Assembly: GCA_964517685.1 (NCBI GenBank) | Contig: CAZFCF010000001.1 | Span: 153,458 to 217,457 of the forward strand | Reading direction: 5' to 3' | Length of the DNA stretch: 64,000 nt | Origin: an uncultured Gammaproteobacteria bacterium | Lineage (GTDB): Bacteria > Cyanobacteriota > Vampirovibrionia > LMEP-6097 | Part shown: positions 12,261 to 60,849 of the stretch, in pieces | Layout of the letters: each line of letters starts with the position of its first letter | Position numbering within the stretch: position 1 is the first letter of the stretch | Position numbers and translations under genes: made by a program | Notes under the pieces: generated by a model | Databases searched by the model: none | The model's input: only the letters and a program-made list of their open reading frames with translations | What the model was told of the DNA's origin: nothing

Positions 12261-14156
12261 CTAAGGAGTAGTAGGTGCTGTAGTTGCTCCATTTGTAGTG
12301 GTAGTTTTAATTACACCACTCTTGATTCCTTGTTGTAGCAATCCCTGTAAAGCAGTCCCTAGCTGTTGTTCAAGTTCTCGTTTAGAACTTTGGGTTGTAC
12401 CATTAGTAGTCTGTGGAGCAGTTGTTTGTGTTTTACCATTTTGTAGAGCTGAGTTTAAAGTATCAGATAGTCCTTTGAGTTTGGAATTTTTCTCAGCGGT
12501 TTTTTGTAAATAGTTTAACCCTTGTTGTAGAGCTGTTTGTACTACTTTACCTTTGTTAAGTTTTGCCAGTGCTTCTAAATCTGGATAAATAGAAGGCTTG
12601 TTTATGGTTCCTCTTATTTTCATTGGTAGAGGGCTTGGTAATTCCTTACTGTTAAGTACTATGTCATAAACTATCCACTGACCATTTTTGACAGTACCTG
12701 ATCCAGTAATATCAGCAACAGAAGTATGAATAAGGATATCGTCAGTTCGTAAAAAATTATTTTCAAGATGGAATTTAGAATTCAGAGTAGCAAATTCATC
12801 TGAAATCTTCTTAGTAAGCTCGCTTCCGTTCTTAATGATTGCATCTGCTAAGTCATTATATTTTGTAATGTTTTTAAGAATATATAATGAACCGTCTTTT
12901 ATAGAGATTTGACCATCAGCTATAAATGATTTATTGATTTGTTTTGCATCGAGACCTGCAAATCTAAAACTATAATTGTTGATTTCGAAAACTCCAAATA
13001 CTACTTCTCTTGTATTCGTGAAGCAATTAAGTGCCTCTTCAATCTCAAGCCCTGAAAGGTTTCCAGATCCACTGCCACTCATATACATTGATTCAAGATT
13101 TACATTAACTTTCGTGTTTGCGGTCAAGGTAGCACTTTTAGAATTTTTGTCTTTGAGAGTAACTTTTGCATTATTGCTGAGTAAAGAGAGATTTGGGTTC
13201 TTGATCATATTGATAGAGAATCCTAATGGAACAGTAGTATTAACTTCGATAGTATGGTCTACAGTGTTACCTAATAGTAGATCATTGATTTTTAAATTTC
13301 CTGAACCGTGCATAACATCGAGGACATCGCCAGTAAGGCTGGAATCATATTTTAATGATGAGCCACTAGTGACTTTAATACCATTACCCAAAATTTGACT
13401 TTTGAGTTCTTGAGGTAAATCATTAAGTTTGATATTAATGCTGAACCTACCGTTGATTGGTAATTTATTAAACTTAGTACCGATTGGTCCCAAATCTGCA
13501 TCACAAGTAATGTTGGAGCTTTTAACTCCAAAAAATTCTGCGGTCATTTTTAATTTAGAAATTACTTCTTCTTGGTCGCTTACAACAAAATCAGAAAGCT
13601 CTAAATTGAAATTATTTAGGATGATTGGTTTTTTAGCTTTATGTGGAGTGAATTCATAAGTTGAGTCTTTGATAATAAATTCTTTTAAATTGAAGTCTGT
13701 AATAAACTCATCTTTGTTTTTCTTGTTTTTGCGTTTCTTTTTCTCTTTCTCAAGTTTTTCCTGTAACTCAGTTAAATTGATACCTTTAGGAAAAACTTCG
13801 CGTTTAGAGTTCTCTTCGAATCTAAGAATTGATTTATCAAGAATGATTTTCTTTATATAAAGTCTCTTCTCAAGTAAAGATCTAAGTTCTAATTCTGCAT
13901 TTAATTCTTCAACGTCGATAGCGTCACCAATTTTTAATTGAGTGATTGCCAGGGTTGGTTTTAATCTCAGCAAAGCCGGAAAGTCGAATTTAACATCACC
14001 AAAAGAAATCTTGATGTCGGTTTCCTTTTTTACATAGTCGGTTATAGCGACTAGCACATCATGTTTAAAAGAGCCTTGTATATAAAAATATAATCCAGTG
14101 AGGACTATAAGAAATGCTGCAAGAAAAATACCTAAAATAGAAAGAGCTTTTTTCAT
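12261..14156 (-). CDS. AsmA-family outer-membrane assembly protein
   Basis: N-terminal TM anchor, AsmA-like N-domain, long beta-rich body, T/Q-rich C-terminus. Confidence 0.5.
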   Translation of the reverse strand: MKKALSILGIFLAAFLIVLTGLYFYIQGSFKHDVLVAITDYVKKETDIKISFGDVKFDFPALLRLKPTLAITQLKIGDAIDVEELNAELELRSLLEKRLYIKKIILDKSILRFEENSKREVFPKGINLTELQEKLEKEKKKRKNKKNKDEFITDFNLKEFIIKDSTYEFTPHKAKKPIILNNFNLELSDFVVSDQEEVISKLKMTAEFFGVKSSNITCDADLGPIGTKFNKLPINGRFSINIKLNDLPQELKSQILGNGIKVTSGSSLKYDSSLTGDVLDVMHGSGNLKINDLLLGNTVDHTIEVNTTVPLGFSINMIKNPNLSLLSNNAKVTLKDKNSKSATLTANTKVNVNLESMYMSGSGSGNLSGLEIEEALNCFTNTREVVFGVFEINNYSFRFAGLDAKQINKSFIADGQISIKDGSLYILKNITKYNDLADAIIKNGSELTKKISDEFATLNSKFHLENNFLRTDDILIHTSVADITGSGTVKNGQWIVYDIVLNSKELPSPLPMKIRGTINKPSIYPDLEALAKLNKGKVVQTALQQGLNYLQKTAEKNSKLKGLSDTLNSALQNGKTQTTAPQTTNGTTQSSKRELEQQLGTALQGLLQQGIKSGVIKTTTTNGATTAPTTP

Positions 14157-14160
14157 AGTT

Positions 14161-14409
14161 ATAACTTTATTTTAGCCTTTATTTCAATAAGTCTTAGAAG
14201 TGTAATGTGATATCCATATGGATTCAACTTCATTCCGCTTAGAGCAAATCTAGCTCGGTTTGAATTACGCTTCGCGACCGAAAGATTTTACTGTAAAAAT
14301 TAAATTCAAAAACTTCGCACCTTCGCTGATTTGCTTACTAAGCTTCACTTGTTTCATCTCATATTCCTATCAAAATTACACTTCATAAGACTTATTGAAT
14401 AAAGTTATA
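14161..14409. mobile_element. MITE-like structured element copy 1 (~167-bp conserved core within a 36-46-bp inverted repeat)
   Basis: core 14207-14373 ~80% identical to core at 19580-19746; flanks ...gtcttagaagtgtaat / attacacttcataagac... are inverted repeats unique to this copy. Confidence 0.7.
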
Positions 14410-14431
14410 AAAAATTGAGTGATGTACCATA

Positions 14432-14460
14432 AGAATGGTAGCTGAGGGCAGAGTCGCGAA
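14432..14460. other. direct repeat of tRNA 3' end plus flank (att-like duplication)
   Basis: gtaccataagaatggtagctgagggcaga vs 14513-14541 gtaccataaagatggtagctgagggcaga (28/29). Confidence 0.7.
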
Positions 14461-14523
14461 GGCGACTCATGAGAAAGAGAAGAACTGTTCAGTTCAAATC
14501 GTAAAGTGTAAGTACCATAAAGA

Positions 14524-14600
14524 TGGTAGCTGAGGGCAGATTTGAACTGCCGACCTGTGGGTTATGAATCCACCGCTCTCACCAACTGAGCTACTCAGCC
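14524..14600 (-). tRNA. tRNA with CAU anticodon (elongator Met or Ile2/lysidine)
   Basis: 77 nt: GGCTGAG-TA-GCTC-AGTTGGTGA-GAGC..GTGGA-TTCATAA-CCCAC..GGCAG-TTCAAAT-CTGCC-CTCAGCT-A-CCA; CCA encoded. Confidence 0.85.
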
Positions 14601-18795: not shown

Positions 18796-19553
18796 GTTCA
18801 AAATTTTTTATCGCAATATTTTTGTTTTTGAATATAGCAGCAGTAGAAGCGGAAACTTTTAAAATTTCTGTAGTTGGTTCTGAGATTAAAAACCTTACAG
18901 CAATTGAACTTAAGCTTGATATTGATCCCGCTGAATCATTTGTTCTTGAAGAGCAGCTTGAAGTTTTTGATTGGGTAAAGAATCCACAAGGTGAACTTGA
19001 AAGACAATCAGCGCAAGCAAGGGTGCTTTATAAAGTTGCTGACCCTGTACACAATTCAATAAGAGTATTTTTCTTTTATCCCAATACTGTTCATCGTTTG
19101 GAAATAGATGGATCGATACTTAGAAGTAACTATAGTGGTGTAGCTTCTATAAAGATCAAAGAAATTAATTACATTTCTGACTTTTCTCTAACTGTTAATC
19201 CAGCTAAATTAAATGCTACTTTTGAATTGACTTCTAGTGAAGAGTCCCTGCCTTATAAAGGAATTTCTAAAGCTGAAATTCTTGGACCTAAGGAAAGAAT
19301 TTTCAATGAAAATATTTTTGTTTCAATTGGCAATATTGAAACTTATGGTTTTAAAATCGATGAGAAAATCAATAAACTTAGAATCAATGGTGTTGAAGCA
19401 AAGTTAATTGACAATACTATTATTGCGGCAAGATTGAAACTCAATATTAATGAGGTTTTGGAGTCATTGCCAATAGTTCTGGAAATTGAAGTTGATAATC
19501 AGACGGTGACTAAAGAAGTCGGAGTTATACACTTCTTTGAAAATTTAAATTAA
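18777..19553 (+). CDS. secreted hypothetical protein
   Basis: signal peptide FFIAIFLFLNIAAVEA; overlaps lpxC by 19 nt; stop codon lies in left arm of MITE copy 2. Confidence 0.5.
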   Translation: MHCQRISSKFFIAIFLFLNIAAVEAETFKISVVGSEIKNLTAIELKLDIDPAESFVLEEQLEVFDWVKNPQGELERQSAQARVLYKVADPVHNSIRVFFFYPNTVHRLEIDGSILRSNYSGVASIKIKEINYISDFSLTVNPAKLNATFELTSSEESLPYKGISKAEILGPKERIFNENIFVSIGNIETYGFKIDEKINKLRINGVEAKLIDNTIIAARLKLNINEVLESLPIVLEIEVDNQTVTKEVGVIHFFENLN

Positions 19554-19773
19554 CCGTAAATAGGCGGTAGAGTTTAATGTGATATTTCATATGGACTCGA
19601 CTACATTTGCTTGGAGCAAATTAAGCTCGTCTTGAAATACGCTTCGCGACCGAAAAATATTCTTAAATGCTTTAAATTTGCGAACTTCGCGACTCGCAAA
19701 TTTGCTTACCAAGCTCATTTACCTCATCTCATATTTATATCAAAATTAAACTCTACCGCCTATTTACGGTTAA
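19551..19773. mobile_element. MITE-like structured element copy 2 (same core, different 29-bp perfect inverted-repeat flanks)
   Basis: ttaaccgtaaataggcggtagagtttaat ... attaaactctaccgcctatttacggttaa flanking core homologous to 14207-14373; lies between convergent gene ends. Confidence 0.7.
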
Positions 19774-19800
19774 AGAATAAATATATATTGAAATAATGAA

Positions 19801-20829
19801 TTAAGCTGCTACTGGTAGCTTAGATCCCACTTGAACTGCAAGATCACAAAGTCTGTTTGAATAACCGTACTCATTGTCGTACCAAGAAACTACTTTCGCT
19901 TGGTTCTCACCAAGAGTCATAGTCATGCTTGCATCAATGATTGATGAGTGTGCATCGCCAGTGAAGTCGATTGATACAACTGCATCTTCAGTGTAGTCAA
20001 GGATACCTTTGAGTTTGCCTTGAGATGCTTCTTTAAGAGCAGCATTGATAGCTTCTTTAGTTACTTTGTTTTTGAAAGTGAATACTACGTCAACAACAGA
20101 AACGTTAGGAGTTGGTACGCGCATTGCATAACCATTAAGTTTGCCATTTAAATGAGGTAATACTAAACCGATAGCTTTAGCAGCACCAGTAGTAGTAGGA
20201 ATCATAGATAGAGCTGCAGCTCTTGATCTTCTTGGATCGCTGTGAGCGTTGTCAAGAAGTCTTTGGTCTGAAGTGTAAGAGTGAATAGTAGTCATGAAAC
20301 CAGTTTCAACTCCGAACTTATCATCCAGAACTTTAGTTAAAGGAGCTAAGCAGTTAGTAGTGCAGCTCGCGTTAGAAATGATGTGGTGCTTAGCTGGATC
20401 ATAGCTTTCACAGTTAACACCTTTAACGATAGTAATATCTTCGTTTGAAGCAGGCGCAGAAATAAGAACTTTCTTAGCACCAGCAGTGATGTGAGCTTTA
20501 GCTTTGTTTGCATCAGTGAATACACCTGAGCACTCAAGAACTATATCTACTCCAAGTTTGTCCCAGCCAATGTTTGCAGGATCTTTCTCTTTTAAAAATG
20601 GTGTCTTTTTGCCATCAATAGTGATTGAATCAGCGCTAGATTCAACAGTACCTTTGTAGCGACCTAGAATACTATCGTATTTAATTAGGTGAGCTGAAAT
20701 TACTGGATCAGAAACAGGGTCGTTAATTGCAACTACTTCTAGAGTGTTTGCGAAGTTCTCATTTAGTGTTCTGAAAACGTTTCTACCAATTCTACCGAAA
20801 CCATTAATACCAACTTTAATCTTAGACAT
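19801..20829 (-). CDS. gap: glyceraldehyde-3-phosphate dehydrogenase
   Basis: INGFGRIGRNVFR Rossmann motif, ASCTTNCLAP active-site Cys. Confidence 0.92.
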   Translation of the reverse strand: MSKIKVGINGFGRIGRNVFRTLNENFANTLEVVAINDPVSDPVISAHLIKYDSILGRYKGTVESSADSITIDGKKTPFLKEKDPANIGWDKLGVDIVLECSGVFTDANKAKAHITAGAKKVLISAPASNEDITIVKGVNCESYDPAKHHIISNASCTTNCLAPLTKVLDDKFGVETGFMTTIHSYTSDQRLLDNAHSDPRRSRAAALSMIPTTTGAAKAIGLVLPHLNGKLNGYAMRVPTPNVSVVDVVFTFKNKVTKEAINAALKEASQGKLKGILDYTEDAVVSIDFTGDAHSSIIDASMTMTLGENQAKVVSWYDNEYGYSNRLCDLAVQVGSKLPVAA

Positions 20830-20904
20830 GAGGCTGATTATAACAATATTAGTTTCTTATTAGAAGCTGGAAAATTATTCTTATCATATTTTTTTAAGTA
20901 TTTT

Positions 20905-22059
20905 GTGTCATTGCGAGCCATCGAAGATGGCGTGGCAATCCAGTTAGCAAGTAGATTCTGGCAATCTGGATCGCCACAGCTGCTACGCAGCTTCGCGATG
21001 ACGGCGTTTGTTCTGTTAATATGGAATCTTATGACCCCTTCTGGTCTAAAAACCTGGTTACCATCTGATGTTCGCAAGCAAGAATATCTTAGTAGCACGC
21101 TGGTTAATTTATATGAGAGTTTTGGTTATGAACCCATAGTTATTCCTACTATTGTGGATTTATCCGTTGTTGAAAAAGCTAACTCTAAATTTAGTGCCGA
21201 TGTTTTTAAACTTCTCGATAGAGACGGTAAAACCCTTGCACTGCGAACTGAATTAACTCAACCTATCGCGAAGACCATAGCTCTACGTTCTGATGAAATT
21301 AAATTCCCAATTAAACTTTATTACAATTCAAATGTATTTAGATATAAAGGTATCGCTACTGATGATTCACGGGAGATTCAGCAAGTAGGTATTGAATACT
21401 TTGGTTCCAAAGAAAATCAAAATTTTTCCGATCATGAAGTTATTCACTTATTAATAGAATCAGCTCTAAAATTAGGTTTGAAAGATTTCAAAATCACTAT
21501 CACTCATGCTGCAATTTGGAAAAGAGTTTTTGAGTTATGCGATCAAGAATCTTTGGGGCTAGGCTCTAAAGCTTATAACTTCCTCTTGGACGGTGATCTA
21601 GTTGCATTTAGAAAACTTGCTGAAAAAAATCCCCTATTGAAATTAATTCTAGAATCGGATGATATTAGTAAATTTGAAGCTGAATTGAAACTTGATTTAT
21701 CTCTCTTAAAGTCGCTTCTAGAGAATAATCCAGAGTATTTAAGTTTTGATCCTCTGCAATGTCCTGATCTAAATCTTTATACTGGAATTCATTTTAGTCT
21801 TTACTGTGCTGGTGAAGGCAAGCTCATTGCTATGGGTGGTAGATATGATAATTTGTGTAAATCTTTTGGAGCGGATTTACCGGCAATAGGTTTTGCCTTC
21901 TACGTTCCAAGATTGCTGAAAATTTTACTTGAAAGAAATTTATTAGAAGAAAGTTCTGTGAAATTGAGTGTGCTAAAGCCAAGCGCTACTTGGAAAGAAA
22001 CTTTAAATGAAATTAGAAAACTTATACACACAAGGAATAGAGTCTTTCTTAAAGACTAA
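20905..22059 (+). CDS. hisZ: ATP phosphoribosyltransferase regulatory subunit (HisRS paralogue)
   Basis: class-II aaRS-like core without anticodon-binding domain, directly upstream of short-form hisG; real start likely ATG ~21034 (MTPSGLKTWLPSDVRKQEY). Confidence 0.75.
   Translation: MSLRAIEDGVAIQLASRFWQSGSPQLLRSFAMTAFVLLIWNLMTPSGLKTWLPSDVRKQEYLSSTLVNLYESFGYEPIVIPTIVDLSVVEKANSKFSADVFKLLDRDGKTLALRTELTQPIAKTIALRSDEIKFPIKLYYNSNVFRYKGIATDDSREIQQVGIEYFGSKENQNFSDHEVIHLLIESALKLGLKDFKITITHAAIWKRVFELCDQESLGLGSKAYNFLLDGDLVAFRKLAEKNPLLKLILESDDISKFEAELKLDLSLLKSLLENNPEYLSFDPLQCPDLNLYTGIHFSLYCAGEGKLIAMGGRYDNLCKSFGADLPAIGFAFYVPRLLKILLERNLLEESSVKLSVLKPSATWKETLNEIRKLIHTRNRVFLKD
20907..21003. repeat. palindromic repeat (GTCATTGCGAG..CGTGGCAATCC + degenerate inverted half ..CGCGATGAC)
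   Basis: creates the spurious N-terminal extension MSLRAIEDGVAIQ of hisZ ORF. Confidence 0.8.
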
Positions 22060-22762: not shown

Positions 22763-23083
22763 ATGCAGAAAAAAACAAAACAGCCGAAAAGATTACAATT
22801 ACAAATTCCTTTGGAGCTTTATAATGAGGCTAATACAAGGTCAGATGAACTTGGCTTTAATTCTATTAACCAAGTTATGAAATTAATGTTGCAAGGTTTT
22901 GTTAAAAAAGAAATTAGTTTTGGTTTTTTTAATACTACTGATACTAATTCAGCACCCTTTGTAGATTTAAATACTGAAAAAAGAATTGCTGAGAATGTTA
23001 AAGAGTATCGTGAAGGAAAGGTTTATCGGATTAATATGAAAAAAAATAGTTTAGAACAATTGAAAACGATACTAGATGAATAA
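22763..23083 (+). CDS. RelB/DinJ-like antitoxin (RHH)
   Basis: small ORF overlapping toxin by 8 nt; beta-strand LQLQIP followed by two helices typical of RHH. Confidence 0.45.
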   Translation: MQKKTKQPKRLQLQIPLELYNEANTRSDELGFNSINQVMKLMLQGFVKKEISFGFFNTTDTNSAPFVDLNTEKRIAENVKEYREGKVYRINMKKNSLEQLKTILDE

Positions 23084-23378
23084 TGAATCCAAATACGATA
23101 TTGAATTTTCTGAGCCCTTTAGAAAATCATTGAAAAAATTAATTAAGAGTCATCGTTTATCTCTTGATAAATTTAATAGAATTTTGTTAGTTCTTGCAGC
23201 TGATCCTTTTGCAAAAAATTTATTTACTCACAAAGTTAATACTAGAATTTTAGGTATTCGCTATAGTTCCAGAATTGATGGGGATTTGAGGCTAATATGG
23301 GAGCTTCAAGAAAAAAAACTTATTATACTTTTGCTTGATATTGGTGGACATTCTGGTGCTAAAAAGGTTTACAAATAA
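23076..23378 (+). CDS. RelE/ParE-superfamily toxin (YafQ-like)
   Basis: 100 aa; F..S..FRKSLKKL...LGIRYSSRIDGDLRLIWELQEKKLIILLLDIGGHS pattern of RelE/YafQ mRNA interferases. Confidence 0.55.
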   Translation: MNNESKYDIEFSEPFRKSLKKLIKSHRLSLDKFNRILLVLAADPFAKNLFTHKVNTRILGIRYSSRIDGDLRLIWELQEKKLIILLLDIGGHSGAKKVYK

Positions 23379-25789: not shown

Positions 25790-25858
25790 AAATTATCTTC
25801 TCAAATGAATTTACCTACAAAGTTATATTTACAAAGCAAGGTTAAGTTTGGGTTAAGT

Positions 25859-25932
25859 GTCATTCTGAGGAGCGAAGCGACGTGAGAATCCAGTCTTTAG
25901 TAAGTGGATTGCTTCGCTATGCTCGCAATGAC
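25859..25932. repeat. palindromic repeat (GTCATTCTGAGG..CGTGAGAATCC + GGATTGCTTCG..CTCGCAATGAC)
   Basis: overlaps the last 5 codons and stop of serS. Confidence 0.85.
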
Positions 25933-27206
25933 GCAGAAATAACTGAAAGTCCACCAAGATATGGTCTCAAAACCTCAGGCACAGTCACAGAGCCATCTTC
26001 ATTCTGGTAGTTTTCTAAAATAGCAGCCACAGTTCTACCCACTGCAAGACCTGAGCCGTTAATGGTGTGAACTAATTCTGCTTTAGCTCCTGCATCACGT
26101 TTGAAACGGATTTGGGCACGGCGTGATTGAAAATCTAGAAAGTTACTGCAACTTGAAATCTCTCTGTATTTGTTTTGACCTGGGAACCAAACCTCTAAGT
26201 CATAGCATTTGCTGGTACTAAAACTCATGTCGCCAGTGCAAAGTAACATTTTACGATAAGGCAATCCAAGCGCTTGAAGAATTGATTCAGCATCTTTAGT
26301 AAGCTGCTCGTGAAGTACTTCACTTTCTTCAGGGCGGCAGATCTTCACGAGCTCAACTTTATTGAATTGATGTTGGCGAATAATGCCGCGTGTATCTTTA
26401 GATGCGGCACCAGCCTCTGCTCTAAAGCATGGTGTATATGCACAAAAGTTTAGAGGCAAAACTGCATTGTCTAAAATTTCATCGCGATGAATATTGGTCA
26501 AAGGTACTTCTGCAGTAGGAATAAGATATAAATCTTCTTCTTGAACTCTGAAGAGATCTTCTTCGAATTTTGGTAATTGCCCAGTGCCATGTAAAGATGC
26601 TGAGTTAGCAAGAAAAGGTGGAAGCATTTCTTTGTAACCATTTTTGCTAGCTTGGTCTAGCATGAAATTAATTAAAGCTCTTTCAAGTTTTGCACCAACT
26701 CCTTGTACTAAAGTAAATCTACTTTTGGCAATTTTTACACCACGTTCAAAATCAAAAATCCCTAAAGCTAAACCGATCTCATCATGATCCTTTGCGGTGA
26801 AATTGAAAACTCTTGGTGTGTCATGTTTGTAAATTTCTTGATTATCATTTTCATCTTTGCCTTGTGGCACAGACTCTTGTGGTGCATTTGGAAGGTCTAA
26901 TAAGATTGCCATTTGCCTAGAATGGAGTTCTGGTTCTTTATCGGCAATAGCTTTGAGAGAATTTTTGATTTGATTTAATTCTTCGATTTCGGCATCGGCA
27001 TTTTCGCCTTTGGATTTTTTCATGCCGACAGTTTTAGAAAGTTGATTGCGGCTTGCCTCTAGTTTTTCTTTTTCTTGAAGTGCGAGGCGGTGTTCTTCGT
27101 CGATTTTGATCAGTTCATCAATAAGAGGTGCCCATAAGGAATTTCTTCTACTAAGTAATTCTTTGATTTTATTGGGCTCTTTTCTTATAAGTTTGAGATC
27201 TAACAT
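25917..27206 (-). CDS. serS: seryl-tRNA synthetase
   Basis: MLDLKLIRKEPNKIKELL N-terminal coiled coil, class II motifs; C-terminal SASLRA* is repeat-encoded. Confidence 0.9.
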   Translation of the reverse strand: MLDLKLIRKEPNKIKELLSRRNSLWAPLIDELIKIDEEHRLALQEKEKLEASRNQLSKTVGMKKSKGENADAEIEELNQIKNSLKAIADKEPELHSRQMAILLDLPNAPQESVPQGKDENDNQEIYKHDTPRVFNFTAKDHDEIGLALGIFDFERGVKIAKSRFTLVQGVGAKLERALINFMLDQASKNGYKEMLPPFLANSASLHGTGQLPKFEEDLFRVQEEDLYLIPTAEVPLTNIHRDEILDNAVLPLNFCAYTPCFRAEAGAASKDTRGIIRQHQFNKVELVKICRPEESEVLHEQLTKDAESILQALGLPYRKMLLCTGDMSFSTSKCYDLEVWFPGQNKYREISSCSNFLDFQSRRAQIRFKRDAGAKAELVHTINGSGLAVGRTVAAILENYQNEDGSVTVPEVLRPYLGGLSVISASLRA

Positions 27207-29940: not shown

Positions 29941-30813
29941 CACTTTGGTTATAATTGTTCTGTGAGCGACAATTTGGAAGAATTTAATAAGACTATTAAT
30001 GAGATTAGAGATCCAGAGCATGGTTGTGTCTGGAATCTCAGCCAAACTCACAGTTCACTTAAACGTTACTTATTAGAAGAGCTTTATGAAACATTAGAAG
30101 CTATTGATGAGCTTGAAGAAACTAAAAACTATGATGCTCTTAAAGAAGAGCTTGGTGATTTACTTTTACAAATAGTTTTGCATTCTAAACTCGCTGAAGA
30201 AAAAGGCAAATTTAGTTTAGACGATGTTATTGATGGCATTAACAAAAAGATGATTAAACGTCATCCACATGTTTTTAAGAGAGCCGAATCTGGTGGAGCT
30301 GCTACTGTCTCGGAAGTGGATAATCACTGGGATAAAGAAAAAGCTAAAGAGAAAGAAAGTCGCGAGTCGTTCTTCGAAGGAATCCCTCTGGAGATGCCGG
30401 CTTTAGCGCGCGCTTGGAAAATTTCTAAGAAGGCTGTGAAAGAAAGTTTCGAGTGGGATGAAGAGAAAAAACTTTGGGGACAATTAGATTCTGAGATTAA
30501 AGAGTTTCTTGAAGTTACCGAGAACTATGAAAAGCAAACAGGGATTGATCTTTATAAAGATGGTTTCCAGGATGAAAAAGTAAAACGTGAAGCAGAATTA
30601 GAGCTTGGAGATATTTTATTTACTATAGTAAATGTGGCACGCTGGTACAAGATTGATCCTGAAGAAGCTTTAAGACAGACTAATAACAAATTTATTAAGC
30701 GCTTTGAAGTGATGGTAAAGATCTGTAAATCACGAGGCAAAACATTAAAAGACTATAGCGTTTCTGAGCTGGAAGCCTTGTGGCAAGAGGCAAAGCTGTC
30801 ATTGCGAGCGTAG
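29929..30813 (+). CDS. mazG: nucleoside triphosphate pyrophosphohydrolase MazG
   Basis: tandem MazG EExGE/ELGDxL motifs; likely real start GTG ~29962; last 3 codons and stop (SLRA*) from repeat. Confidence 0.75.
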   Translation: MLNRHFGYNCSVSDNLEEFNKTINEIRDPEHGCVWNLSQTHSSLKRYLLEELYETLEAIDELEETKNYDALKEELGDLLLQIVLHSKLAEEKGKFSLDDVIDGINKKMIKRHPHVFKRAESGGAATVSEVDNHWDKEKAKEKESRESFFEGIPLEMPALARAWKISKKAVKESFEWDEEKKLWGQLDSEIKEFLEVTENYEKQTGIDLYKDGFQDEKVKREAELELGDILFTIVNVARWYKIDPEEALRQTNNKFIKRFEVMVKICKSRGKTLKDYSVSELEALWQEAKLSLRA

Positions 30814-30906
30814 CGAAACGTCATTGCGAGGAGCCGGAGGCGACGTGGCAATCCCATCAAGGCTTGCTCAGGGGGATTGCTTCGTCGTTCCACTCCTCGC
30901 AATGAC
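30798..30906. repeat. compound palindromic repeat (two GTCATTGCGAG units + CGTGGCAATCC + GGGGGATTGCTTCG..CTCCTCGCAATGAC)
   Basis: three modules in series forming a ~108-bp imperfect palindrome. Confidence 0.85.
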
Positions 30907-30926
30907 GTCTTGTGATATATTAAAAC

Positions 30927-32911: not shown

Positions 32912-33072
32912 AAAGTACCTAATTTCGGTACTTTGTCCTATGAGAAAGTACCGTTTTGAGGTACTTTTGCACACCAGAATTTTTAGTAACTTACTACAAA
33001 TCTGATTTTGTTGATTTGTAGTAAGTTGATAAACGTGAGCAACTTACTACAAATTGAATTTTATTGATTTGT
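32903..33072. repeat. array of four hairpins (2x aaagtacc-N7-ggtacttt; 2x cttactacaaat-N10-12-atttgtagtaag)
   Basis: perfect 8-bp and 12-13-bp stems; between rnl stop and MNT start. Confidence 0.7.
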
Positions 33073-33127
33073 AGTAAGAGGAAATCTGCACATTTTTTCA
33101 ATAGAGTTACTTAAGCTATAATTTTGC

Positions 33128-33505
33128 TTGATGAAGCCAGCTTCACACAAAAGCAAATTAGAGCTAGAGTCATTCTTGACTAATGTGATATCCAAAATTG
33201 CACAAGATTTTATGCTTGATGAAGTTTTACTGTATGGCTCATATGCCAAAGGTACGGCTAATGCTGATAGTGATATTGATTTAGCTATCATCTCTCCTCA
33301 ATTAACTAAGAAAAGTATTTATGCTAATAATAGATTTATTAAAACGCAAATTAAGCTCTATGAGCCTGGTCTGCAGCTTACATCTTTTCCTTCTGAGGTT
33401 TTCTATAATGAAACCTTTGTTGATCCTGGTTTCATACAGGAAATTAAACGCACTGGTAAACGAGTTTATAGTAAGGACAATGGTTTGGATTTGAGCTTGT
33501 TGTAA
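33128..33505 (+). CDS. minimal nucleotidyltransferase (Pol-beta superfamily, MNT-like)
   Basis: LYGSYAKGTANADSDIDLAI (GS..D.D NTase motif). Confidence 0.65.
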   Translation: MMKPASHKSKLELESFLTNVISKIAQDFMLDEVLLYGSYAKGTANADSDIDLAIISPQLTKKSIYANNRFIKTQIKLYEPGLQLTSFPSEVFYNETFVDPGFIQEIKRTGKRVYSKDNGLDLSLL

Positions 33506-33508
33506 GCT

Positions 33509-33606
33509 GTCATTCAGAGCCCTCGAAGAGGGCGTAGGAATCTATTTACTATAGAGCTTTTGGTAGACTGGATTGCCACGTCGGGCTTCGCCCTCCTCGC
33601 AATGAC
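33509..33606. repeat. palindromic repeat (GTCATTCAGAGCCCTCGAAGAGGGC..GGATTGCCACG..CTCCTCGCAATGAC)
   Basis: module composition as above. Confidence 0.85.
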
Positions 33607-50950: not shown

Positions 50951-52057
50951 TTACGCCGCTAAAATATCCATAGCTTTCTTCTCAAGTACAGCTCTAGGTG
51001 TTTCTATGCTATTGCCTCTGATGATTTGAACCAAAGCTTCTTTGAATAAGCTATTATTGCCGACTTTACTCATTTGATCTTTAATTGCATGAACATTGAT
51101 TCCAAGTTGTTCAAGTTCAGTAACAATTTTATCGATTGGTATATCTGTAGCTAAATCTTGGAGTACCTGTAACATAGTTGTCGAGCTATCTACAACCTTG
51201 CCGAAACTGCTAGCAATTTTTTGAGCTGGAGTTTCTGAAGATCTTTTTTGAGCTTCAGCTAAAGCTATTTGCCTTCTTTCCGCAGCTTGCTCTTCATAAG
51301 CCTTTTCTTCACTTGCAGCTATTTCATTGCGATGTTTTTCATATTGTTTTTGTTGATAAACTTTCTCTTGATACATTTTTTCTATATAACGTTTTTCCTC
51401 AAGCTTAGCTAGGTAAGCTTCTTTTTTTGCTTTGCAAGAAGATGAACTGCCAAATAAATAGCGATATGTGTTTGAAAAGAAGTTGTAGATTGGCTTGAAA
51501 AAATAATTATTAATACCAGAAATAGTTTCACTAAAATTAGAAAACACTTTAGTCACACTCGGATGAGTTACCAGCTCAGTAAATGCTGTCATCGGACTAA
51601 CTACGGCTTTTGCTCCCCATGCCATGCCTTGAGCAAGCCAGTTTGTTGCAGTCTTAATACCTGCTTCTATATTTGATTTGACGTCATTGCGAGCCATTGA
51701 AGATGGCGTGGCAATCCCTTCCTTAGATTCGGCTTTATCAATTTCAGTTGTCTCTTTGTTTGTGCCTAATAGTGCCGCTGCACCTTTAGCGACATCATCG
51801 ATACTAAAACCTGTTGTTGCTTTAAGTACATCGCTTATAGTGGGAGTTGCTGTTGTGGTTTTTTGTTCACTAACAGTTTCAGTTTTAGTTGAATTAGTAA
51901 AACTATCTTTTGGTTCTTCAACCTTTACTTCTACAGGAGGATCTGTTAATTCTGTAGTTTCAGTTGACTGCGCAGATAAAGCATTGGCCGCCTCAACTAC
52001 CCTAGTAGCGATACTTGGACCTTTAAGAATTATTTGGCTTAATAAATCTAAACTCAT
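50951..52057 (-). CDS. hypothetical protein (T/E-rich N-half, coiled-coil C-half) with repeat insertion
   Basis: 368 aa; IATPSSMARNDVK is encoded by repeat at 51684-51717. Confidence 0.45.
   Translation of the reverse strand: MSLDLLSQIILKGPSIATRVVEAANALSAQSTETTELTDPPVEVKVEEPKDSFTNSTKTETVSEQKTTTATPTISDVLKATTGFSIDDVAKGAAALLGTNKETTEIDKAESKEGIATPSSMARNDVKSNIEAGIKTATNWLAQGMAWGAKAVVSPMTAFTELVTHPSVTKVFSNFSETISGINNYFFKPIYNFFSNTYRYLFGSSSSCKAKKEAYLAKLEEKRYIEKMYQEKVYQQKQYEKHRNEIAASEEKAYEEQAAERRQIALAEAQKRSSETPAQKIASSFGKVVDSSTTMLQVLQDLATDIPIDKIVTELEQLGINVHAIKDQMSKVGNNSLFKEALVQIIRGNSIETPRAVLEKKAMDILAA
51684..51717. repeat. single repeat unit GTCATTGCGAGCCATTGAAGATGGCGTGGCAATCC in CDS
   Basis: near-identical to unit at 20907-20941. 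Confidence 0.85.
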
Positions 52058-52171
52058 AGAAAATTTTCTAAATTCCTATATATAGAAGTGTCTTTTTGAT
52101 AGGAATTTGATAGATTATAGGTGTAACTACTCATTAATCTTAACTATTCTGTGGATTAATTTATTAGAAGA

Positions 52172-54874: not shown

Positions 54875-54938
54875 TCATCCTGAGGGTAAAGAAAGCAAGT
54901 GCCGTCATTGCGAGCCCTCGAAGAGGGCGTGGCAATCC
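54875..54938. repeat. palindromic repeat (GTCATCCTGAGG..GTCATTGCGAGCCCTCGAAGAGGGCGTGGCAATCC)
   Basis: module composition as above. Confidence 0.85.
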
Positions 54939-55178: not shown

Positions 55179-57824
55179 GTGTCTTTTTTAGAACAATTAT
55201 CAAGATTTTCTATTTTAACGCGACCCACTTCAAAATTAGGCAAAGTTTTAAAAGAAGTTCATCCTTATTCATCATCTGATAAAAATAGCTACGATGAGAT
55301 TTTAAGAAGATTAGGTCCTGTATTTGATAGTTTAGACAAACTTTTTCAAAGGACTAGGAATGGATATGATGACAAAGAAATTATTGAATTATCAGCTAAA
55401 TATACATTTTTAAAAGAAAAATTAAATACGAAGAAAACACCTTTACCAGAGAAAAACAAATATCTTCTAGAATTCAAAAACCTGATTCATGGAACTAATA
55501 TATTGAATCAATTCTATGATTTACTTCAATCTGAAAAAGTACAAGCATTTAATATTAATCGACAACGTCATCCTACAATTCAACTCTTTTTTGATGGATT
55601 AAACTTTAAAGGAAAAAATTTACAGAATATTGTTTTTAGGAATGCAAAAATTATAGATTCTAATCTTTGTGAAATTGATTTAACAGATTCAGATTGTATT
55701 GAAACTGTATTTTCAAAATCAGCTCTATATAAATTAAATTTTACTGAATCTCAATTAAATTCAGCTACCTTTACGAAAGTAAATGGTTCCAATATTAACT
55801 TCACCGATTCAAATTTACCTAAAGCTAAATTTGAAAATTGTGAACTTTTTAAAGCTAATTTTTGTGGAGCAAATCTTAGTAATGTTGAAATAAAAGATTC
55901 TTCGCTTTATGAAGCAAACTTTAGTAAGGCAGACCTGAGTCAAGCTCAAATAAATAAATTAAAATCTCATAATTCAAATTTTGAAAGAGCAATTTTCAAG
56001 AATACCAATCTCTCTAACTCTTTTTTATTTGATGCAAATTTTAAAAATGCAGAATTAACATCAACTGAATTTAATAATGTTGATTTAACTGGTGCTGATT
56101 TTAGTGGAGCCAAACTTTTGAAAGTTAATTTCTATCACTGTAATCTCACGGGTGCAAATTTTAGGAACTGTGATCTTTACCGTATAACAAATCAACAGCT
56201 TGATCAAATTATAAATCCCCTATCTGTTCGTAATGTTAATTTTCAGGAGGGAATTAAATGGTTATTTAAAAATATTGATTCTAAAGAACTAAGTAATATT
56301 ACTACTCATAAAATAATTAGATTTTTAAATATAGACTCTAATTTAGTAAGCCGTATTGATCCAACATTGCTAAGTAAAATTAATACTATTAACCCAAAAG
56401 AATTTATTGCAAGATTATTTTTGATTTATGAAATAAATATTTTAATCGAGAGAGTTTACAGAGAAAATCATAAAACTTTGGATCAACTCTGCAGAGTTTT
56501 ATATAATTCATGTGGAAATAATCTTGATGATTTAATACTTGAAGGCAAGCTCTTAAGTAATCATCTTAGTTCAGGCAATGAAAGTATTTTAAGAGACTCT
56601 TTGGAATTGGTTTTTGATACTTTTGTTTTACCAAGATTAGAAAAGTTTTTAGATACAGCTGCAATTAAAAAGTTAAAGCAATGGCAAGTATCAAGCTTTA
56701 AAGAAAAATTAATGCCATATTTTATGATTGCAATTTCTCAAAATAGATTTTTTGATCCATCTTCTGATTATTCTAAGTTAAAAGGAGAAGTAGCTTCACT
56801 ACCAAAGAGTGCAAATTATAAAATGCCGTCATTGTTACTTAATCTATCAAGGGGCATTCATCATCCTGTTATAGCTTATGATACAGCCGTAAGACATATA
56901 CTTCCTGAAGGCTCTTGGTATCCCATTTTAATTTCTGCAAATAATCAAGTTGAAATAACTTTGCCAAATACTGATAAAAAGTATTTAGTTAGAAATTTGA
57001 TCAATTACAAAGATTTTGATTACGAAACTTTTGTATTAGGTCATTGTATCGGTCGAGGTGTATTTTACGTTAACAAAGCAAAAGAAGGAGGACATCATTA
57101 TTTTTCTATTAGAGAAGCAGAAACTGGTATACCAATATCTACGGTGGAATTTGCTCTAAATGAGCGCTTACAATTACAAAAAATGCAACATAAAGGAAAA
57201 AATAATTTGCCACCAAGTGATGCTGCCAAAAAGATATTGGAAATATTTTTACGAGGTGTTAAAGACGGTACTTATCCTCTATCTTTAAAACAAACTGGTA
57301 AAGATTCCAGTGTTGAAAAATTATCTGTTTTTGAGAATGCAGTTGGTACTTTTTGTGATGATGATACTGAAGTCACAAAGAATCGTAGAATATTTGATAC
57401 AACTAATGTACACTCAGTTCAAGTAAGAGCTTGGATTAAATTAGCGCAACCTAAAAATGGCTATTTAATAAATCGACTACAAAATGGCGAAACTTATAAA
57501 TTGAATCCTGGTATTGGTACCACTAATAATTTAGGCGAAACAATTCAACTTGGTGGCTATAGAGCTAAGCCAGAAGGTATTCCTTATGATAACTATTTTA
57601 TACCTAACTCCTGTAGAGGGGATCTTAGTTTAGAATCTATTAATCCAAGAAAAGTGAATGATAAACGTTTGAGATTTTCACAATTTTCTGGAAATGATTT
57701 GGCTGAGATTGACAAAGGTATAGAAAGATTTTTTAATACCAAAGTTACAGATCAAATGAGTTTTGATGATCTAATAAAATCTACTATTATAGAAGTTGTG
57801 CAAACAGAAGAACCTCCTCTTTAA
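55179..57824 (+). CDS. pentapeptide-repeat protein, paralogue 1 (881 aa)
   Basis: A(D/N)LxxA(N/D)F repeats over residues ~150-340; conserved N-domain and ~540-aa C-domain shared with paralogue 2; GTG start. Confidence 0.7.
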   Translation: MSFLEQLSRFSILTRPTSKLGKVLKEVHPYSSSDKNSYDEILRRLGPVFDSLDKLFQRTRNGYDDKEIIELSAKYTFLKEKLNTKKTPLPEKNKYLLEFKNLIHGTNILNQFYDLLQSEKVQAFNINRQRHPTIQLFFDGLNFKGKNLQNIVFRNAKIIDSNLCEIDLTDSDCIETVFSKSALYKLNFTESQLNSATFTKVNGSNINFTDSNLPKAKFENCELFKANFCGANLSNVEIKDSSLYEANFSKADLSQAQINKLKSHNSNFERAIFKNTNLSNSFLFDANFKNAELTSTEFNNVDLTGADFSGAKLLKVNFYHCNLTGANFRNCDLYRITNQQLDQIINPLSVRNVNFQEGIKWLFKNIDSKELSNITTHKIIRFLNIDSNLVSRIDPTLLSKINTINPKEFIARLFLIYEINILIERVYRENHKTLDQLCRVLYNSCGNNLDDLILEGKLLSNHLSSGNESILRDSLELVFDTFVLPRLEKFLDTAAIKKLKQWQVSSFKEKLMPYFMIAISQNRFFDPSSDYSKLKGEVASLPKSANYKMPSLLLNLSRGIHHPVIAYDTAVRHILPEGSWYPILISANNQVEITLPNTDKKYLVRNLINYKDFDYETFVLGHCIGRGVFYVNKAKEGGHHYFSIREAETGIPISTVEFALNERLQLQKMQHKGKNNLPPSDAAKKILEIFLRGVKDGTYPLSLKQTGKDSSVEKLSVFENAVGTFCDDDTEVTKNRRIFDTTNVHSVQVRAWIKLAQPKNGYLINRLQNGETYKLNPGIGTTNNLGETIQLGGYRAKPEGIPYDNYFIPNSCRGDLSLESINPRKVNDKRLRFSQFSGNDLAEIDKGIERFFNTKVTDQMSFDDLIKSTIIEVVQTEEPPL

Positions 57825-58059: not shown

Positions 58060-60849
58060 GTGGCGTTTTTAGAACGATTAGCTAATTTTTCTACTTTAAC
58101 TCAGCCTTCTACAAGGCTTGGAAAAATTCTTGCCGGAATTCATCCCTATTTGATACTTAAGAAAAAAAATGATTATAATGACATATTAAGAAAATTACAA
58201 CCCGTCTTTAATAGCTTGGATAGGCTTTTTCAAATAGGGCAAAGAAATTCTGATAATAAAGAGATTAGAGAATTATCATTAGAATATAGATCTTTAGGAC
58301 AACAATTACAATCTACGAAAGCAACTTTAGAACAAAAAAAGAATTATCTTTTAGAGTTCAAAAAATTAGTTTATAAAACTAATAGACTGAATCAATTTCA
58401 TGATTTACTTCAATCTGAGAATGTAAGAGTATTTAACGCTAACAGACAACTATATCCTACAATTCAAACTCTTTTTCATGGGTTAAACCTTAAAAGAAAA
58501 AATTTACAAAATATCGATTTTAGAAATACGAATATTGCGCAATCAAGTCTTTCTGAAATTGATTTAACAGATTCAGATTGTATAGGAATTAAATTTTCGG
58601 ATCTAGCTTTATATAAATTAAATTTCACGAATGCCCAATTAGATTCAGCTAGCTTTACAGAAGTAAAAGGTTCTAATATTGATTTCACTAATTCTCATTT
58701 ACCTGAAGCTAAATTCGAAAATTGTAAGCTCTTAAAAGCAAATTTTCATGAAGCAGATCTCAGTGAGGTCATAATAAAGAATTCCTCTTTCCAGGAAGCA
58801 GATTTTAGTGATGCAGAACTGATATCAACTAAGTTTAGAGACGTTGATTTAACTGGTGTTGATTTTAGTGGAACCAAACTTTTTAAAGTTGATTTCTTTG
58901 GAAGCAATCTTATGGGTGCAAATTTTAAAAATGCAGAATTAATGTCAACTGAGTTTGGAAGCGTTGATTTAACTGGTGCTGACTTTAAAGGAGCCAAGCT
59001 TTCTAACGCTGATTTTGATAGCAGCAATCTTATGGGTGCAGATTTTAGTAATTGTAATCTTCGCAATGTAAAAATCACAAGTCGGCAGCTTGAGCAGATT
59101 ATAAATCCTCTCTCTGCTAATAATGTTAATTTCAGGGAAGGAATCAAATGGTTATTTAAAAATATTGACTCTAAAGAATTAAGTAATCTTAGAGTTCATC
59201 AAGTAATTAGATTTTTAGATATTGACTTTTCTTTGATAAATAGTATTGATCCATCATTGCAAAGCAAAATTAATACAATTGATCCTAGAGAATTAATTGC
59301 AAGATTATATTTGATTTCTGAGACAGACATTTTTAGCAAGCATGTTTGCGCAGAAAATCATCAAGCTCGGAATCAACTCTGTAGAGTTTTATATAATTCA
59401 TGTGGAAATAATCTTGAGGATTTAATACATGAAGGTAAATTAGTTAATAGTGATCTTCGCTCAAATAATGCCAGTGATTTTAAAGACTCTTTGAACCTAG
59501 TTTTTGATACTTTTGTTTTACCAAGATTAGAAAAGTTTTTAGATACAACTGCAACTAAGGAGTTAAAGCAATGGCAGTTATCAAAATTTAGAGAAAAACT
59601 AATTCCATATTTGGTTATTGCAATTTCTCAAAATAGATTTTTTGATCCAAGCTCTGATTATTCTAAGCTAAAGGGGAAAGTAGCTTCACTACCTAAAAAT
59701 GCAAACTATAAAATGCCATCATTATTACTCAATATATCAAAAGGTATTCACAACCCTGTTGTCGCTTATGCTACAGCAGTAAGGCATATTAGTCCTGAAG
59801 GCTCATGGCATCCTATTTTAAATTCTGTGGCTAATCAAGTTGAAATCACTTTACCTAATAGTAATAGAAGATACTTAGTTAAAAATTTGATCAATTACAA
59901 AGATTTTGATTATGAATCTTCTGCATTAGGTCATTGCATCGGTCAAGGTGTACGTTACGTTAACAAAGCAAAGGGAGGTAAATACCATTATTTTTCTATA
60001 AGAGAAGCAGAAACGGGCAAGCCAGTATCTACCGTGGAGTTTGCTTTAGGACATGATGGTAGTCCTAGGGGTCCTTTTGAAGATCGTGATATTAGAGCCA
60101 GAAATAGTACTTCAATAGACAATCATTCTGATTATTTTTTACAACAAATCCAGCATAGAGGAAAAAGAAATTCGATACCAACTGCAGATGCCAAAGAGAT
60201 CCTGAAGATATTTTTACAAGGTGTCAAAGACGGTACTTATCCTATATCCTTAAAACCAATTGGTAAAGATTCTAGTACTGAAAAATTATCTGCTTTTGAA
60301 AATACTATTGGTACTTCTTTTGATGATACCGAAGTTATAAATAATCGTAAAATGTTTGATACAACTAATGTACATTCTATTCAAGCAAGAGCTTGGATTA
60401 AATTAGCGCAACCTAAAGACAGCCATTTAGAAAATCGACTACAGGATGGTGAAATTCAAGAATTAAACCCAGGTATTGGTGTCATTGACGAGGAAACTGG
60501 CGAAACAATTCAGCTTGGTGGCTATAGAGCCAAGCCAGAAGGTATTCCTTATGATAACTATTTTATACCTAACTCCTGTAGAGGAGATCTTAGTTTAGAA
60601 TCTATTAATCCAAGAAAAGTGAATGATAAACGTTTGAGATTTTCACAATTTTCTGGAAATGATTTGGCTGAGATTGACAAAGGTATAGAAAGATTTTTTA
60701 ATACCAAAGTTACAGATCAAATGAGTTTTGATGATCTAATAAAATCTACTATAGAAACTGTGCAAAAAGAAGAACTTCCGAAAAGAGATCTTGCGCACGG
60801 AGATCTTTTGATGATGGAGTTGGCTGCAATTATTGGGGATAATCAATAA
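58060..60849 (+). CDS. pentapeptide-repeat protein, paralogue 2 (929 aa, longer repeat tract)
   Basis: ~60% identity to paralogue 1 in N-domain, near-identical in last ~100 aa; extra pentapeptide units. Confidence 0.7.
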   Translation: MAFLERLANFSTLTQPSTRLGKILAGIHPYLILKKKNDYNDILRKLQPVFNSLDRLFQIGQRNSDNKEIRELSLEYRSLGQQLQSTKATLEQKKNYLLEFKKLVYKTNRLNQFHDLLQSENVRVFNANRQLYPTIQTLFHGLNLKRKNLQNIDFRNTNIAQSSLSEIDLTDSDCIGIKFSDLALYKLNFTNAQLDSASFTEVKGSNIDFTNSHLPEAKFENCKLLKANFHEADLSEVIIKNSSFQEADFSDAELISTKFRDVDLTGVDFSGTKLFKVDFFGSNLMGANFKNAELMSTEFGSVDLTGADFKGAKLSNADFDSSNLMGADFSNCNLRNVKITSRQLEQIINPLSANNVNFREGIKWLFKNIDSKELSNLRVHQVIRFLDIDFSLINSIDPSLQSKINTIDPRELIARLYLISETDIFSKHVCAENHQARNQLCRVLYNSCGNNLEDLIHEGKLVNSDLRSNNASDFKDSLNLVFDTFVLPRLEKFLDTTATKELKQWQLSKFREKLIPYLVIAISQNRFFDPSSDYSKLKGKVASLPKNANYKMPSLLLNISKGIHNPVVAYATAVRHISPEGSWHPILNSVANQVEITLPNSNRRYLVKNLINYKDFDYESSALGHCIGQGVRYVNKAKGGKYHYFSIREAETGKPVSTVEFALGHDGSPRGPFEDRDIRARNSTSIDNHSDYFLQQIQHRGKRNSIPTADAKEILKIFLQGVKDGTYPISLKPIGKDSSTEKLSAFENTIGTSFDDTEVINNRKMFDTTNVHSIQARAWIKLAQPKDSHLENRLQDGEIQELNPGIGVIDEETGETIQLGGYRAKPEGIPYDNYFIPNSCRGDLSLESINPRKVNDKRLRFSQFSGNDLAEIDKGIERFFNTKVTDQMSFDDLIKSTIETVQKEELPKRDLAHGDLLMMELAAIIGDNQ

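Follow-up and report, generated by a model that had tools for sequence, protein, structure and literature searches.

How can one structured core come to lie in two long palindromes whose sequences are unrelated? The question is raised by a non-coding repeat of roughly 184-185 bp that occurs in two copies in the genome of an uncultured Melainabacteria (Vampirovibrionia), within a 64,000-nt stretch of DNA that is called the window in the following. A sequence-only reading of this window had described two cores, ~80% identical and in the same orientation, at 14207-14373 and 19580-19746. BLAST recovered both (14199-14382 versus 19571-19752, 78.6% identity over 187 columns, same orientation, E 1e-33) as the only two full copies in the 64 kb; the cores are therefore real, with limits that lie slightly further out than described and that include an 8-bp terminal repeat. 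The features at stake are the following:

14177-14198, unstranded: left arm of copy 1, CTTTATTTCAATAAGTCTTAGA, starting where the 5' UTR homology to a relative (L092) ends (~14179)
14199-14382, plus strand: shared unit of copy 1, with ends AGTGTAAT/ATTACACT and an imperfectly palindromic core (covariance model 226 bits)
14237-14343, plus strand: central helix of copy 1, GCTTAGAGCAAAT (14237-14249) with ATTTGCTTACTAAGC (14329-14343), plus inner helices
14267-14283, plus strand: conserved box ACGCTTCGCGACCGAAA, a 17-mer that is found again at 19639-19655
14383-14404, unstranded: right arm of copy 1, TCATAAGACTTATTGAATAAAG
19550-19570, unstranded: left arm of copy 2, TTAACCGTAAATAGGCGGTAG, holding the stop codon of a 258-aa ORF
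19571-19752, plus strand: shared unit of copy 2, with ends AGTTTAAT/ATTAAACT and the core (covariance model 219 bits)
19753-19773, unstranded: right arm of copy 2, CTACCGCCTATTTACGGTTAA
52085-52110, minus strand: weak candidate for a solo right-end remnant, intergenic, in which 23 of 26 bases match 14359-14384

The two copies are found in different surroundings. Copy 1 lies between a tRNA-Met gene (14524-14600, minus) and a 631-aa gene (ATG at 14156, minus), upstream of the start codon of the latter, with ~20 nt separating the ATG from the outer end of the arm. Copy 2 is situated between the convergent stop codons of the 258-aa gene (plus) and the gene encoding GAPDH (minus), with the stop codon of the former (19551-19553) inside the left arm, exactly as had been read from the sequence, and with a 27-nt A+T-rich spacer between the right arm and the GAPDH stop codon (19801-19803). 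Because the contexts differ, the strand of the element has no consistent sense relation to neighbouring transcription. Homologs of the GAPDH assign the window to the Melainabacteria/Vampirovibrionia. The window sequence is identical in three ENA assemblies and in several Logan assemblies from other runs, which shows that the hairpins are not assembly artefacts, and one Logan contig (L130) crosses copy 2 unbroken. Ends of Logan contigs were seen within the tRNA-Met gene (L130, L131), in a REP-like repeat at 2571 (L126, L127) and, in two different runs (L098, L099), at position 14244, 38 nt inside copy 1. The latter stop may be a hint, no more, of a third copy that has at least 31 nt in common with copy 1, or may reflect a hairpin-related coverage gap. 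We considered that the 5.4 kb between the copies could form a composite transposon or island; this was dropped, as the genes encoding LpxC, the 258-aa protein and GAPDH are syntenic in relatives that lack the repeat.

Some properties of the neighbourhood of copy 1 were observed in passing. According to the Pfam labels of two homologs (P0125, P0126) the 631-aa gene encodes a distant relative of the AsmA family; its neighbour is a radical-SAM gene in two relatives (L092, L093) and a tRNA-Met gene plus a 1051-aa gene in the window (region 12261-14156). In the spacer between copy 1 and the tRNA-Met gene (14405-14523) there are two small hairpins, TACCATAAGAATGGTA and GAGTCGCGAAGGCGACTC; the latter has GTCGCGAAG in common with the minus strand of the conserved box of the core. 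The 32-aa ORF that was called over this same spacer in the ENA assemblies is probably spurious.

The shared unit is delimited by a terminal inverted repeat of 8 bp, AGTNTAAT...ATTANACT, with N as a covarying position that is G:C in the first copy and T:A in the second, and this is followed inward by an imperfect repeat, GTGATAT/ATATCAAAA (7-9 bp), that is also common to both copies. The conserved box ACGCTTCGCGACCGAAA occurs exactly twice in the window against a chance expectation of 0.05, so that the shared box of the sequence-only reading is borne out; read on the minus strand, it contains GCGAAGC, a 3-bp stem with a GAA loop. Palindromes of the tccatatgga type had been reported for both copies; copy 1 indeed contains TCCATATGGA, but its counterpart in copy 2 is the imperfect TTCATATGGA. 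No reading frame is open in both copies, and a protein-coding reading was dropped for this reason.

Outside the terminal repeat, the arms of the two loci are unrelated. Beyond the 8 bp, the alignment score of the arms of copy 1 and copy 2 is not above that of shuffles or of random 21-mers from the window, in agreement with the original description of long bounding repeats that are unrelated between the loci; an inter-copy arm homology of 64% identity, as counted by eye, was discarded because shuffles score as high. Pairing of the internal loops with the arms in a guide-target fashion was rejected likewise, the arm-to-core matches being not above shuffles. Over 74 kb of the genome and the loci of the relatives, no second occurrence of either arm sequence was found. 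Within each locus the arms fit each other tightly: those of copy 2 (19550-19578 versus 19745-19773) are 29 nt long and 100% complementary, and those of copy 1 (14177-14206 versus 14375-14404) pair over about 22-30 nt, all Watson-Crick, with two 1-nt bulges. The outer arms are A+T-rich, measure 21-29 bp and contain zero G:T pairs. They continue the helix of the element in register and leave no loop remnant, the junction being fully paired in copy 2 and marked by one bulged A in copy 1, and their outer ends coincide with ORF boundaries, i.e. with the stop codon at copy 2 and the vicinity of the ATG at copy 1. The symmetric and abrupt end of the homology between the copies argues that the copied unit consists of the core and its short terminal repeat. 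At a single position, ~8% of changed pairs give way to similarity at the level of chance, which is a boundary of the insertion type and does not agree with a single ancient hairpin of which the outer stem has drifted. No direct repeat that could represent a target-site duplication was found around the shared unit (copy 1 ...TTAGA/TCATA..., copy 2 ...GGTAG/CTACC...). The left flanks of both copies end in TAG(A) directly before the shared unit, where two cases are too few to judge, and TTAA is present outside both arms of copy 2, a sequence that is itself palindromic and hence ambiguous as a target duplication.

Each locus is predicted to fold into one long rod on either strand (z -8 to -11.5); the energies for the two loci are -69 and -82 kcal/mol on the plus strand, compared with -74 and -91 kcal/mol on the minus strand. 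A consensus structure built from both sequences comprises 50 pairs in the shared unit, with 100% of the cells paired, eight double changes and one one-sided change; when the partners were slid by 1-3 columns as a control, pairing fell to 29-43% and the double changes to 0-1. The compensatory pair change cited in the sequence-only reading, from A:U to G:C, is therefore genuine and is one of several. The central and inner helices of copy 1 alone contain four compensatory changes with respect to copy 2 (19609-19621 with 19700-19714). In a recount that took the minimum-free-energy fold of one copy and read it in the other, six to eight double changes and five to nine broken pairs were found, the breaks being mostly in the poorly defined apical part. 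Random placement of an equal number of substitutions in the paired columns breaks as few pairs in <0.1% of trials (P<0.001), from which it follows, for two sequences only, that the hairpin is really maintained.

Does this make the core an RNA? Two paralogs of a structured non-coding RNA gene, in which the core would be the functional RNA and the outer helix a closing stem that needs only to pair, would account for the strong predicted folds, for the compensatory changes with hardly any one-sided ones in the main helices and for two G:U pairs that are conserved on the plus strand. The minus strand, however, folds at least equally well. When the left half of each hairpin was compared with the reverse complement of its right half, 84-87 columns per hairpin were Watson-Crick and the mismatches comprised only 1-2 of the wobble type versus 11-15 others; this lack of wobble bias on either strand means that neither strand is favoured as RNA. 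Closing stems of 29 bp that are all Watson-Crick and free of G:U point to DNA templating instead, and hairpin-templated correction of DNA palindromes yields the same compensatory pattern (PMC5941160, PMC7202029), so that covariation by itself does not argue for RNA here. None of the Rfam 15 covariance models, among them those of 6S RNA, Y RNA and ribozymes, matched over the element at the gathering score, and with E up to 10 only chance matches of the snoRNA type appeared. Promoter-like and terminator-like sites were not above shuffles at either locus, the scan for intrinsic terminators gave none at either locus, and a T-rich run follows the element on the GAPDH-sense side of copy 2 only. The element is, moreover, missing from the congeners at both sites and from every collection searched, and its orientation to the neighbouring transcription differs between the copies. 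Taken together, the results on Rfam, reading frames, promoters, wobble pairs and orientation fit a DNA palindrome better than an RNA gene, which we consider very unlikely. Of the conserved RNA/DNA structure proposed earlier, the part that stands is a hairpin kept by compensatory changes; its reading as RNA does not.

The origin of the arms was approached through the relatives, of which the loci were retrieved via orthologs of the flanking proteins; with ~84-95% nucleotide identity in the flanking genes these represent sister species. At the site of copy 2 the stretch between the stop codons of the 258-aa gene and the GAPDH gene was as follows:

L090 (GAPDH 94% amino acid identity): 0 nt between the stop codons
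L113/L114 (GAPDH 99% amino acid identity): 15-nt spacer, GTCTCTTAAACTTAA
L091 (GAPDH 99% amino acid identity): 131-nt spacer, with a pair of REP-like hairpins
L115 (GAPDH 91% amino acid identity): ~172-nt spacer, with the same REP-like family as L091 and a small G+C-rich terminator-like hairpin

The sequence-only reading had called for a comparison with empty sites in related strains, and at the copy-2 site these four congeners have neither the core nor the CCGTAAATAGGCGGTAG...CTACCGCCTATTTACGG palindrome; no CCGTAAATAGGCGGTAG arm is present in any of them. The homology of the window to the relatives ends at 19551 and restarts at 19799. A pre-existing terminator hairpin is thus not supported at this site; as the relatives belong to another species, the palindrome could possibly have been gained later in the present lineage. 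Since other hairpin repeats occupy the same intergenic site in L091 and L115, the spacer downstream of the GAPDH gene is a hotspot for different hairpin repeats in the sister species.

At the site of copy 1 the sole informative relative is L092, in which the ortholog of the 631-aa protein is 89% identical. It matches the last ~25 nt of the 5' UTR (AAGGCTAAAATA...GTTATAACTATG) and diverges at ~14179, where the left arm starts; the gene upstream is a radical-SAM gene in L092 versus the tRNA-Met gene in the window. By this comparison of sequences copy 1 lies at a synteny break, and judging from the differing gene order in the sister species the break is a rearrangement breakpoint, which is not the same as an empty site. 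An ancestral flank that matches either arm was not found in the relatives. Two more distant loci (L093 4034-4226, and L094) carry, at the equivalent position upstream of a 47%-identical ortholog of the 631-aa gene, an unrelated element in which 25-nt inverted repeats (96%) surround 114 nt and the left arm is tandemly duplicated (two copies of a 29-nt unit); homology of the core to this element was considered and rejected, as the alignment shows no similarity to the core.

These data bear directly on the view, put forward in the sequence-only reading, that the core was inserted into the loop of distinct terminator-like hairpins. Spelled out as a model, the core would be a mobile unit that integrates into unrelated palindromes already in place (terminators, for example), at their dyad centre or in their loop, and that recognizes structure instead of sequence. 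Several arguments can be made for it. Both copies are exactly centred in long palindromes, which random insertion would never give, and the convergent genes around copy 2 are a setting in which one expects a terminator. This genome does have long A+T-rich hairpins that lack a core: at 32982-33078, downstream of an RNA ligase gene, there are two in tandem, with 13-21-bp stems, ~10-nt loops and 88% mutual identity. Class C group II introns target terminator stem-loops and thereby provide a further precedent for insertion into palindromes. Insertion sequences that aim at REP palindromes are a precedent as well (PMC1525189). The palindrome is nevertheless lacking at site 2 in the four congeners, the junctions show no loop remnant and copy 1 immediately precedes a start codon. 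Perfect all-Watson-Crick stems of 21-29 bp do not resemble terminators, the terminator scan was empty, and the scenario requires that two unrelated and unusually long perfect palindromes existed beforehand. We regard this origin as unlikely, though still as a live competitor of the preferred reading, and the part of the earlier description that took the arms for terminator-like hairpins predating the core is not supported.

Could the whole hairpin of 225-250 bp be what moves instead? The copies might then be different subfamilies of a conventional MITE, or the core might be nested in two other hairpin repeats, and the arms would be terminal inverted repeats that are shared with copies elsewhere. 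The joint absence of arms and core at site 2 of the relatives, as if they had arrived together, TTAA (or TA) on both sides of the copy 2 arms, and the contigs of two Logan runs that end at 14244 would suit such a unit. Against this, no other locus with either arm was seen in the 74 kb or among the relatives, the cores are 79% identical while the arms are similar at chance level, and copy 1 has no clear target duplication, which makes a conventional unit quite unlikely. The covariance model (R1), run over 142 kb (the window, a 10-kb extension (L124) and ~68 kb of relatives), returned the two known copies only. An exact scan for ACGCTTCGCGACCGAAA in a collection of genome contigs, evidently without this genome, gave 87 loci, all by chance and with at most 19-29 nt in common; a two-block scan of JGI metagenomes gave eight chance matches only; pattern scans of viral contigs gave chance matches or nothing; and distant blastn searches of plasmid and phage collections, as well as a concatenated six-frame peptide query that was aimed at spurious ORFs called over other copies, gave nothing. 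The pattern scans need exact matches of at least 14 bases and are thus insensitive to copies of 80% identity, so that these negatives limit the abundance of the element weakly. A Pfam scan that took in all window ORFs of 100 aa or more revealed no transposase, integrase, reverse transcriptase or Y1/HUH enzyme.

Two partial matches within the window can be mentioned here. The match at 52085-52110 includes part of the inner arm of copy 1 and is embedded in a small local hairpin, AAATTCCTAT...ATAGGAATTT, with divergent genes on either side; judged by its sequence, it may represent a third copy of which a solo remnant is left. The 14-nt exact match to the left end of copy 1 at 33181-33194 (TAATGTGATATCCA), within a nucleotidyltransferase ORF, is probably due to chance (BLAST E 0.16).

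Inverted repeats of 20-30 bp around ~170 bp also recall an inverton, a segment with a promoter that a recombinase flips by acting on the repeats, and copy 1 is immediately followed by a gene that encodes a large envelope-type protein. Invertons are recognized by the occurrence of both orientations, an invertase and a downstream gene. Here all independent assemblies show a single orientation, no recombinase is encoded in the 64 kb, there is no gene that copy 2 could drive, each locus has repeats of its own and the segment itself is palindromic, so that an inverton is hardly conceivable.

The feature is a hairpin-forming intergenic repeat that we assign to no named family, and the comparison with known systems makes clear in what respects it deviates. 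Bacterial MITEs include, for example, Correia, ERIC, RUP and the cyanobacterial Nezha. Like these, the element falls within 100-300 bp, is non-coding and intergenic, has terminal inverted repeats, folds into a rod and is missing at the orthologous sites of relatives. MITEs, however, have conserved terminal repeats and a target-site duplication, whereas the copies described here have 8 bp (and the imperfect 7-9 bp) in common, their long repeats are unique to the locus and no duplication surrounds the shared unit of either copy. MITEs also come in many copies with an autonomous partner that has the same ends; in this regard, the 74 kb of the genome that were covered gave two copies, ~68 kb of relatives gave none, and the window gave no transposase. 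REPINs, which are doublets of REPs that are mobilised by a RAYT, likewise consist of intergenic, non-coding DNA that forms a long hairpin when single-stranded or transcribed into RNA, and compensatory changes on the two sides of their hairpins are common (PMC3116915). Their ends are conserved and their centre is variable, whereas the present element has a conserved centre and locus-specific ends. They are also present in high copy and linked to a RAYT, whereas the element has two copies and no ORF of the 64 kb matched the RAYT/Y1 transposase family. REPs and REPINs are defined by conserved 20-40-nt REP hairpins in inverted doublets with a variable spacer, by high copy number and by a cognate RAYT, a layout of which the element is the reverse. 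Elements derived from IS200/IS605 have subterminal hairpins, lack terminal repeats, insert 3' of a fixed tetra- or pentanucleotide and have TnpA nearby. The TAG(A) before both shared units may be compared with such a site, for which two copies are too few to judge; the ends of the element are inverted repeats, and the window gave no TnpA. Palindrome-targeting insertion sequences (IS1397/ISKpn1, ISPpu9/10 and other IS110-family members in REPs) and class C group II introns are similar in that mobile DNA sits at hairpin targets. They differ in that one conserved repeat family or true terminators are targeted and the enzyme is encoded by the element itself, whereas the putative targets at our loci are unrelated and missing in relatives and the insert is non-coding. 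Insertion of mobile DNA in or beside hairpin-forming targets as such has precedent (PMC1525189, PMC12288879). An intrinsic terminator (a short G+C-rich stem, a loop of 3-8 nt and a U tract) differs from the A+T-rich arms of 21-29 bp that enclose ~170 nt. Quasipalindrome correction, finally, would leave arms that are Watson-Crick throughout and changes that look 'compensatory' although no selection is at work; it is documented for short repeats and single mutations, not for an outward growth of 20-30 bp around a dispersed repeat.

The window contains other repeats and modules that were noted along the way. An abundant REP/REPIN-like family is represented by ~25 units in the window (e.g. 2545-2623, 20900-21000, 25857-25933, 30793-30911, 33502-33605, 43415-43526, 46937-47017, 51676-51717 and 54897-54938) and is also found in L091 (2870-2980) and L115 (1850-1990), two sister species in which such units fill the spacer downstream of the GAPDH gene where the window has copy 2. 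The unit of ~35 nt reads (C/T)GTCATTGCGAG, a variable small hairpin that mostly has a GAAG loop, and G(G/A)GCAATCC, and often forms inverted doublets; its inner hairpin varies with compensatory changes (GCCATCGAAGATGGC, GCCCTCGAAGAGGGC, GCCACGAAGTGGC), and some units overlap the N-termini of predicted ORFs (20905, HisZ-like, and 61712). At 22763-23378, a YafQ-type toxin gene and an upstream partner of 106 aa lie between hisG and a DUF561 gene, which are adjacent in two relatives (L090, L113); the module is flanked by a 30-nt inverted repeat of 77% (22854-22883/23380-23409) and is probably an inserted toxin-antitoxin cassette. Two paralogous genes in tandem (55179-57824 and 58060-60849; 881 and 929 aa) have pentapeptide repeats and a weak PcfJ-like region. 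Their identity varies by block from 70 to 99% and amounts to 99% in the 3' 250 nt, a pattern that suggests recent gene conversion.

Building on the homology of the copies, their boundaries, the maintained hairpin and its absence from relatives, the reading that we tentatively prefer is that of a low-copy, MITE-like palindromic repeat that acts at the DNA level and of which the arms are secondary, probably the product of hairpin-templated (template-switch) growth. The copied unit would be the ~184-bp core with its short terminal inverted repeat. From two copies we infer that it is mobile; in single-stranded DNA, and incidentally in read-through RNA, it would snap into a long hairpin, the integrity of which either would be required for propagation or would be restored by template switching during replication, which corrects arm against arm. 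The outer arms would lie outside the copied unit and would not be ancestral at the site: a nascent strand would fold back on the hairpin, copy its own flank for ~20-30 nt and switch back, and the outcome would be a perfect, locus-specific extension that ends at the neighbouring ORF. The finished rod may then act as a barrier to transcription or as an RNA-stabilising hairpin, namely at copy 2 on the side that is sense to GAPDH.

Secondary growth of the arms is favoured by their perfect, in-register pairing, by ends that fall on ORF boundaries and by a decay that proceeds from the outside in: pairing is best at the outside of the palindrome and worsens toward the centre, so that the outer layers look youngest, as is expected if growth is seeded by the element. 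The mechanism is a documented one, since template switching that turns imperfect inverted repeats into perfect ones is established in bacteria and can copy a flank in inverted orientation (PMC5941160, PMC7202029). The right arm of copy 1 is the reverse complement of the left region except for a 1-nt gap and a 12-nt gap, the latter lying between two direct AATAAAG repeats. Beyond the arms, TTATAA at 14405-14410 mirrors 14159-14164, and the mirror match reaches TTATAACTTTATT (14159-14171 versus 14397-14409), which overlaps the UTR common to L092; this mirroring is compatible with inverted copying of the flank, in a match that is too short and too A+T-rich to serve as proof. Several points stand against the preferred reading. 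Only two copies are known, a target-site duplication is not visible and the 64 kb do not encode a partner transposase. Growth by template switching predicts that one arm is the old flank, and in the relatives neither arm could be identified as such. The abundant REP-like repeats of this genome have no locus-specific extensions, which indicates that palindrome growth is not a general habit of the genome. Frequent correction of arm against arm, furthermore, should have erased the asymmetric internal loops of the core, and these are conserved between the copies.

A more far-reaching proposition is that the element itself makes its arms, by outward fold-back growth until a gene is met, or that an integration machinery finds the dyad centre in any palindrome solely from its structure. 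We consider this doubtful. If true, either mode would be undescribed for bacterial MITEs or REPs. Targeting of the centres of unrelated palindromes by the core would represent structure-guided integration without sequence specificity. The architecture is genuinely unusual, yet with two copies and no enzyme found in the window it is a modest curiosity. Should the arms be made by the element, the two loci would record palindrome growth in a natural genome and would link dispersed hairpin repeats with template-switch mutagenesis; they would then also be a warning that, where DNA is palindromic, 'compensatory covariation' should not be read as a sign of functional RNA. In practical terms, the element adds an uncatalogued repeat family to the Melainabacteria, a poorly studied lineage.
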